From: a phage
Reading direction: 5' to 3' (one strand)
Length of the DNA stretch: 40,116 bases
Assembly (NCBI GenBank): GCA_011944185.1
Contig: GCA_011944185.1_3921.1
Of the stretch, positions 1,836 through 2,183 are shown piece by piece. The translations under genes were made by a program, and so were the position numbers. How positions within the stretch are numbered: position 1 is the first letter of the stretch; each line of letters starts with the position of its first letter. Under the pieces are notes generated by a model. That model worked only from the letters and a program-made list of their open reading frames with translations. It was not told the origin of the DNA and searched no databases.

Positions 1836-2183
1836 ATGAAAACTTGTATTAGGTGCAAACTTAGCAAGGATGAAAATGATTTCTACATGAAAGATGGTAG
1901 GAGAACTCATTCATACTGTAAAAAGTGTGTTAATGAGCAAACCATAGAAAGACAAAGAGCACTTAAACTCTTAGCTATTGAGTACAAAGGTGGGGTTTGT
2001 CATGATTGTGGTAAGAAGTATCATCCAGCAGTGTATGACTTCCATCATTTGAATCCTTCAGATAAAGATTTTAACATTGGTCATAGGAAAAGCCTTAAGT
2101 TCTCTCAAGAACTAAAAGATGAACTTGACAAATGTGTTTTGCTATGTTCAAATTGCCATAGGGTAAGACATGCAAAATATTAG
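1836..2183 (+). CDS. HNH endonuclease (homing-endonuclease-like)
   Basis: ATG at 1836 preceded by GGAG; Cys-rich N-terminus (CIRCK...CKKC), HH...N, then CSNCH at the C-terminus; the track start at 1785 overlaps the tRNA so the start was moved. Confidence 0.75.
   Translation: MKTCIRCKLSKDENDFYMKDGRRTHSYCKKCVNEQTIERQRALKLLAIEYKGGVCHDCGKKYHPAVYDFHHLNPSDKDFNIGHRKSLKFSQELKDELDKCVLLCSNCHRVRHAKY

Follow-up and report, generated by a model that had tools for sequence, protein, structure and literature searches.

A probable homing-endonuclease gene of the HNH type between tRNA genes of a Felix O1-like phage

The stretch of phage DNA analysed here (the window; 40,116 nt of assembly GCA_011944185.1) contains a tRNA cluster in which ARAGORN finds 25 tRNA genes within the first 5.7 kb, and a short open reading frame for an HNH-type endonuclease lies among them (Table 1). 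A search of phage records with positions 1–6000 returned 350 matching records, 199 of which cover at least 80% of the query, and the best of them are Escherichia and Salmonella myoviruses of the Felix O1-like kind (Felixounavirus), 94–98% identical. These matches identify the window as Felixounavirus DNA from the tRNA region. The cluster is flanked by a large conserved gene, labelled ‘RNA-binding protein’ in several records, and by a terminase gene.

Table 1. Features of the HNH gene locus, with further copies of the tRNA-like RNA in other loci.
Feature	Position	Strand	Remarks
Sigma-70-type promoter-like site	1507–1535	+	TTGACA-17 nt-TATAGT; 11 of 12 consensus matches
Non-canonical tRNA-Arg(UCU)-like gene, 82 nt	1740–1821	+	Encoded CCA at 1819–1821; ends 14 nt before ATG 1836
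Segment absent from HNH-less relatives, 356 bp	1826–2181	+	Shine-Dalgarno and open reading frame only; boundary can be shifted left by up to 2 nt
Shine-Dalgarno GGAG	1827–1830	+	5 nt upstream of ATG; read directly from the sequence
HNH endonuclease open reading frame, 115 aa	1836–2183	+	ATG 1836, TAG 2181–2183; ortholog of Felix O1 ORF45 (NP_944866)
N-terminal four-Cys zinc ribbon, presumed DNA-binding	1845–1928	+	C4, C7, C28, C31; conservation plus model strands 16–19 and 22–28
HNH (beta-beta-alpha-metal) nuclease domain, predicted	1989–2174	+	Zn ligands C55, C58, C104, C107; D68-F-H70-H71; H108, H112
Right flank of the insertion site	2182–2320	+	Conserved in relatives with and without the HNH gene
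tRNA-Trp(CCA)-like element	2321–2404		16-nt D-loop, encoded G-CCA end; no ARAGORN call
tRNA-Ser	2417–2506		Downstream of the HNH open reading frame; ARAGORN and Rfam runs
Other copies of the D-arm-less RNA	L028 7276–7352; L060 601–682; L061–L067 around 601–684

The program-made list of open reading frames puts the start of the HNH gene further upstream, at GTG 1785, but we favour ATG 1836 because it is preceded by the GGAG motif, because the family alignment starts at MKxCxxC and because the boundary of the indel described below lies at position 1826. GenBank entries for orthologs often start 15 codons too early, inside the T-arm of the preceding tRNA-like gene (in P0001, MRVRVLPPRPILDEI-MKTC), and the N-terminal extension gained upstream is the translated T-arm of that RNA gene. 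Several metagenomic ORF calls cross a same-strand tRNA T-arm (signatures GSNP, GSIP, GSSP and VRI). Endonuclease genes in these phages typically start a few to ~40 nt past the preceding tRNA gene. An earlier note on this DNA, made from the sequence alone, had the gene begin 15 nt after a tRNA 3′ end; an encoded CCA does stand at that distance, give or take the counting (14 nt lie between it and the ATG), but the unit that it closes is a D-arm-less tRNA-like gene for which ARAGORN makes no call.

The same note placed the gene downstream of a sigma70 promoter. The site at 1507–1535 is real, and the ASO1A record carries an annotated promoter at the homologous position, but it is unchanged in relatives that lack the HNH gene and belongs to the tRNA operon, with which it would also transcribe the HNH gene. 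The gene has no promoter of its own. Terminator-like sites were absent from positions 1300–2800, hence from the whole interval between the promoter and the gene, and this terminator-free stretch makes the HNH gene most simply a part of the tRNA transcript.

Several further features of the surrounding tRNA region were recorded. The ~200 nt between the operon promoter and the tRNA-like gene (1536–1739) contain hairpins and only sub-threshold, tmRNA-like Rfam matches, and Felix O1 and D4 carry additional insertions within the equivalent region. A spacer motif, ACAGAAGACCnnTTACAGCAA ... GGTCTGGT, is repeated between tRNA genes at 268–340, 431–498, 893–964 and 973–1119, and could serve in processing or represent a small repeated element. 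The best Rfam match of the tRNA-Trp(CCA)-like element is tRNA-Sec (23 bits, under threshold); in wV8, the 84 nt homologous to this element are swapped for a tRNA-Trp that ARAGORN detects together with a different, Felix ORF47-like HNH gene, whose start again lies 15 nt past the tRNA. The tRNA at 3263–3337 carries substitutions at 3298 and 3315: its anticodon is TAT (called Ile), compared with TAC (Val) in five relatives, and its T-loop has a T-to-C change of its own (GGTTCAAGTCC to GGCTCAAGTCC). Both changes hit normally invariant positions, and they may reflect a genuine switch of anticodon, decay of the gene or an error in sequencing.

We then examined the identity of the 115-residue product. 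The PHROG 2255 profile (‘HNH endonuclease’) matches residues 1–114 at E = 6.4e-39 and further PHROG HNH families match at 3e-23 and 1e-13. With orthologs reaching E = 8e-72 and 246 homologs found at or below E = 1e-5, the gene lies far outside what chance would give. Pfam HNH (PF01844) aligns with residues 55–113 at a borderline 17.6 bits (E = 0.0045; cut-off 21.4), and since this is under the gathering score the identity call was not rested on Pfam alone; among 37 homologs, nine match the same model at E ≤ 0.01 (best 3.2e-6). Measured by the earlier note's own condition, an HNH domain detected by profile search, the Pfam result is borderline, and it is the PHROG families, the McrA match given next and the nine homologs that settle the identity. 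HNH_3 (PF13392), one of the two models named in that note, gave no match to the protein at E ≤ 1. A single-sequence phmmer search of PDB sequences found the EcoKMcrA HNH domain (E = 0.0013) and a profile search of the same sequences found only a weak match to a group II intron maturase HNH (E = 0.08). The NCBIfam search yielded noise only, Foldseek of the structural model against the PDB gave no match with E ≤ 0.001, and tblastn with a motif scan detected no paralog of the gene within the window.

An AlphaFold model built from the family alignment (pLDDT 94.3, pTM 0.81) has at its N-terminus a beta hairpin (16–19, 22–28) bearing C4, C7, C28 and C31, followed by a long helix (29–50). The C-terminal half comprises a strand (67–71) ending in D68-F-H70-H71, an inserted helix (91–97), a second strand (100–104) and a helix (105–113), to whose region C104, C107, H108 and H112 are assigned. 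This is the beta-beta-alpha-metal arrangement of HNH, or His-Me finger, nucleases, in which strand 1 ends in the catalytic His and the helix bears a metal-binding His (H70, H71, H108, H112), with a structural zinc site of the form CxxC...CxxC (C55, C58, C104, C107). Invariant across the 37 homologs are C4, C7, C28, C55, C58, H70, H71, C104, N106, C107, H108 and H112, and C31 is kept in at least 90% of them; a Cys4-zinc HNH would be expected to show this set of invariant positions. In one pairwise alignment the middle Asn of McrA (‘TDNC’) is matched by K99 (‘LDKC’), a Lys that is invariant in the family. Relative to the HNH domains of EcoKMcrA (6GHC), Gme HNH (4H9D) and GVE2 HNH (5H0O), the family in the window is distinguished by this Lys, by its own N-terminal zinc ribbon and by an insertion of ~15 residues, with the helix 91–97, between the HH and the second strand. 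We place the protein outside HNH_3, in the branch of classical HNH/McrA-like proteins that bear a zinc ribbon at the N-terminus. It is an intact protein of the HNH nuclease fold, and its catalytic steps would be those of its analogues. Membership of the terminase-associated HNH proteins (HK97 gp74 type) was considered and rejected, as terL is annotated ~4 kb downstream in relatives and the gene is absent from most relatives.

Protein relatives occur in 456 phage records, from phages whose hosts include Escherichia, Pseudomonas, Streptomyces, Synechococcus, Vibrio and Prevotella. As expected of a homing endonuclease, they stand in unrelated genomes and in other contexts, on viral contigs with and without tRNA arrays; the gene lies between tRNA genes in 10 of 19 homologous viral loci. 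A more distantly related IMG/VR contig of 84.7 kb (L028) carries a longer homolog of the zinc-ribbon HNH family directly after a tRNA-Met (6315–6794), and an HNH_3 gene directly after a copy of the D-arm-less RNA (7379–7906).

Among close relatives, Felix O1 ORF45, labelled ‘HNH endonuclease’ in GenBank, is the same gene at the same junction and follows the same tRNA-like gene, as do the orthologs annotated in Alf5, heid, D4 and, behind a canonical tRNA-Arg, Sf16; the copy in the window is 94–99% identical in nucleotides to the Felixounavirus orthologs, with few substitutions, and 84% identical to that of Mooglevirus Sf16. The gene is missing from other relatives with precision. In ASO1A and wV8 the sequences homologous to positions 1401–1825 and to 2180 onward are contiguous, at 97.9–99.8% identity, and the empty site reads ACCAATTT directly followed by AGTTAGCAG. 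The cassette that is missing begins 4 nt past the CCA of the upstream tRNA-like gene and stops short of the end of the gene, its TAG stop codon being completed by the flank. A 43-nt probe across the empty junction matched 66–69 phage records and a probe for the occupied junction of the window type matched 14. At the DNA level the gene matches 35 phage records, 28 of them over its full length (26 Felixounavirus at 94–99% and two Moogleviruses at 84%), compared with 199 records for the 6-kb tRNA region at a query coverage of 80% or more. The earlier note had taken the gene for a free-standing HNH nuclease of the mobile, homing-endonuclease kind lodged in a phage tRNA array. The PHROG match, the fold model and the tRNA neighbours bear out the first part of this description, and the comparison of the locus in related phages, with its precise 356-bp presence or absence, fits the second: sporadic occurrence among close relatives with an exact empty site is what a free-standing homing endonuclease would be expected to show.

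All seven copies compared (the window and six orthologs) are intact at 115 codons, with dN/dS of 0.06–0.15 in most comparisons, and by these ratios the protein is under purifying selection. The right flank is 81–100% identical (mostly 94–100%) in the Felixounavirus loci where it was found, whatever their HNH status, and that of the window is 100% identical to the flank of an HNH-less locus (L010). In a comparison of 27 Felixounavirus loci, flank sequences did not group according to HNH status, so the tRNA region is finely mosaic, and as the flank polymorphisms do not track the HNH gene, no co-conversion tract is visible. The ‘VpaE1_ev’ records were considered as a natural experiment and set aside, being apparently field isolates linked to a coliphage survey of infant faeces (PMC6969025) and not evolved lines.

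Taken together, we consider it probable that the open reading frame encodes a small, two-module, site-specific DNA endonuclease that behaves as a free-standing homing-endonuclease gene of the Felix O1-like tRNA operon. The N-terminal four-Cys zinc ribbon would contact DNA and the C-terminal HNH (His-Me finger) domain would catalyse. In a mixed infection, the enzyme would cut or nick the genome of a gene-less relative at or near the empty site or in a neighbouring tRNA gene, and the recipient would then acquire the gene, together with markers next to it, through recombinational repair from the HNH-bearing genome. Expression may be kept low by release of the mRNA from the pre-tRNA transcript. 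The cleavage, repair and low-expression steps are modelled on T4 SegB, the T4 Mob enzymes and T5 F-TflI/II/IV; literature searches returned no biochemical characterization of any ortholog.

These known systems resemble the gene in the window to different degrees. T4 SegB is a homing endonuclease encoded between T4 tRNA genes and absent from T2L, RB1 and RB3; it recognises the TpsiC motif of tRNA genes, reaches ~100% inheritance in crosses, is co-transcribed with the tRNAs and ensures preferential inheritance of the tRNA region (PMC2330249). Like the gene in the window it is free-standing, lies between tRNA genes and is missing from close relatives, but it is a GIY-YIG enzyme whose fold is unrelated to that of the window protein, and it serves as a mechanistic analogue only. 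[quoted passage not shown] F-TflIV has been placed in His-Me group 1 together with McrA and Gme HNH, the best structural and sequence matches of the window protein. For the T5 enzymes, experiments have established the target sites. Closer to hand, six HNH homing-endonuclease homologs have been described in Felix O1 (PMC3185647), and the genome note on Alf5 describes an abundance of tRNAs and homing endonucleases as typical of the genus.

Three other explanations were weighed. Under the first, Ounavirinae inherited the gene vertically from an ancestor as an accessory nuclease and many lineages are losing it through deletions, so that the pattern records loss and not homing; in our judgement this is unlikely. 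The same insertion junction is occupied in two genera, since Sf16 carries the gene at this site behind a canonical tRNA-Arg(UCU), and its gene is 84% identical beside flanks at 82.6–84%. Because gene and flanks have diverged equally between Felixounavirus and Mooglevirus, long vertical residence with losses fits as well as recent homing, and the two are inseparable on the Sf16 divergence data. No degenerate copy is found among the seven compared, and the flanks are without a visible co-conversion signal. However, the missing segment is exactly the Shine-Dalgarno and the open reading frame, with 2 nt of junction ambiguity, and repeated independent deletions would not be expected to give the identical boundaries seen in at least 66 records. 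Genomes with and without the gene share flanks that are 99.8% identical, which implies recent exchange and fine-scale mosaicism and argues against loss, and the family is scattered over unrelated phages.

Strong purifying selection and an HNH fold held in common with the nicking enzymes Gme HNH, GVE2 HNH and T5 SciA could instead point to a domesticated nuclease that serves the phage, by nicking for recombination or replication, by helping packaging in the style of terminase-associated HNH proteins, or by attacking host or competitor DNA. We hold this quite improbable, as absence from most close, otherwise collinear relatives makes the gene dispensable; moreover, it does not adjoin the terminase genes (terL lies ~4 kb downstream in relatives) and has no dedicated regulation. 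Least credible of all is a catalytically dead zinc-finger derivative that binds DNA or RNA, for instance as a regulator of tRNA-operon expression or processing: the sub-threshold Pfam score, the Lys in place of the middle Asn and eight conserved Cys forming two zinc sites would suit it, but the general-base H71 with D68, H70, H108 and H112 is invariant or nearly so in 37 diverse homologs, and the nine homologs with Pfam HNH matches (up to 3e-6) speak against it. The probable homing endonuclease thus set out is already known, both in kind and as this specific annotated gene; with the same gene annotated in Felix O1 and relatives, the finding is correct but ordinary.

The earlier note had also suggested that the HNH gene drove rearrangements at 1033–1253, and this part finds no support. 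Positions 829–1258 keep their order in nearly every Felixounavirus locus, whatever its HNH status, aligning end to end at mostly 95–99% identity, and at 79.5% in Sf16; as the segment is conserved whether the HNH gene is present or not, nothing ties the one to the other. The segment itself contains a tRNA 3′ half (T-arm GAGGGTTCGATTCCTTC and ACTCGGC), 4 nt (AGAT) and a matching 5′ half (GTCGAGT and D-arm), and after these halves a long inverted repeat, TTATCTTTGTAGATAAG at 1122–1138 and CTTATCTACAAAGATAA at 1233–1250. On its sequence it looks like a permuted or split tRNA.

The RNA gene that precedes the HNH gene has an unusual layout: a 7-bp acceptor stem, the 7 nt TATCTCA where a D-arm would stand, an anticodon arm with the loop CUUCUAA, a conserved extra segment of 23 nt, a T-arm and the CCA. 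The Rfam tRNA model scores it at 31.7 bits against a gathering score of 29, and in this alignment 4 nt stand for the 15-nt D-arm and a 20-nt insertion follows the anticodon arm. The loop CUUCUAA, the 7-nt TATCTCA and the 23-nt CGTTAAYCGAGTAANTGGAGTAT are near-invariant in copies. Covariation is strong in three stems (acceptor, anticodon and T): over 12 diverse copies, 98.8% of cells are paired and 13 of 20 pairs have changed on both sides; slid controls were 38–51% paired and none of 500 shuffles was as good. One compensatory change in a Vibrio copy (CUC/GAG to CAC/GUG) suggests, from this single sequence, a 3-bp helix stacked on the anticodon stem at the D-stem position.

The tRNA-like unit matches 263 phage records, and unrelated phage groups share only the 82–84 nt unit itself, at 83–90% identity. 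They are mostly large phages of enterobacteria and comprise the Ounavirinae, Sugarland-like Klebsiella phages, Asteriusvirus jumbo phages, Mydovirus and rV5-like Vequintavirinae, Kolesnikvirus, a Serratia phage of the Demerecviridae and a Vibrio phage. A canonical tRNA-Arg(UCU) occupies the same site in TP1 and in 11 other loci, so that the two versions are allelic. Literature searches found no description of a D-arm-less phage tRNA, which does not prove it undescribed.

In Riker, Kamaji and L028, an HNH_3-type gene that matches the HNH_3 model follows the D-arm-less RNA by 7–27 nt. Instead of travelling as an independent passenger, the HNH gene of the window might belong to a pair that recurs, in which a homing-endonuclease gene follows a D-arm-less tRNA-Arg(UCU)-like RNA at 7–27 nt, a proposal that we find doubtful. 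In its favour, the RNA is shared by unrelated phage groups, is allelic with a canonical tRNA-Arg(UCU) in Felixounavirus and precedes HNH genes of two families in four lineages (zinc-ribbon HNH here, HNH_3 in the three others); against it, at least 66 records have the RNA without an HNH gene, and in Sf16 the HNH gene stands behind a canonical tRNA-Arg. Among the 27 Felixounavirus loci, the HNH gene is confined to the variant allele (five loci with the gene, 10 without), and none of the 12 loci with the canonical tRNA has it. We did not retain this association as evidence of co-mobility in view of the arrangement in Sf16, and tight physical linkage explains it.

As for the HNH gene itself, the window adds one more isolate with a gene annotated in Felix O1, Alf5, heid, Sf16 and others, and matters little beyond the details supplied, namely the boundaries of the 356-bp cassette, the empty-site sequence, the start codon, the domain architecture, the candidate catalytic residues and the count of occupied and empty sites. 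The more interesting by-product is the neighbouring tRNA-Arg(UCU)-like RNA, which is widely conserved, has a rearranged structure and is missed by standard tRNA finders. If the pairing were true, endonucleases targeting the RNA site or its canonical allele would spread an unconventional tRNA through phages, as SegB spreads T4 tRNA genes.
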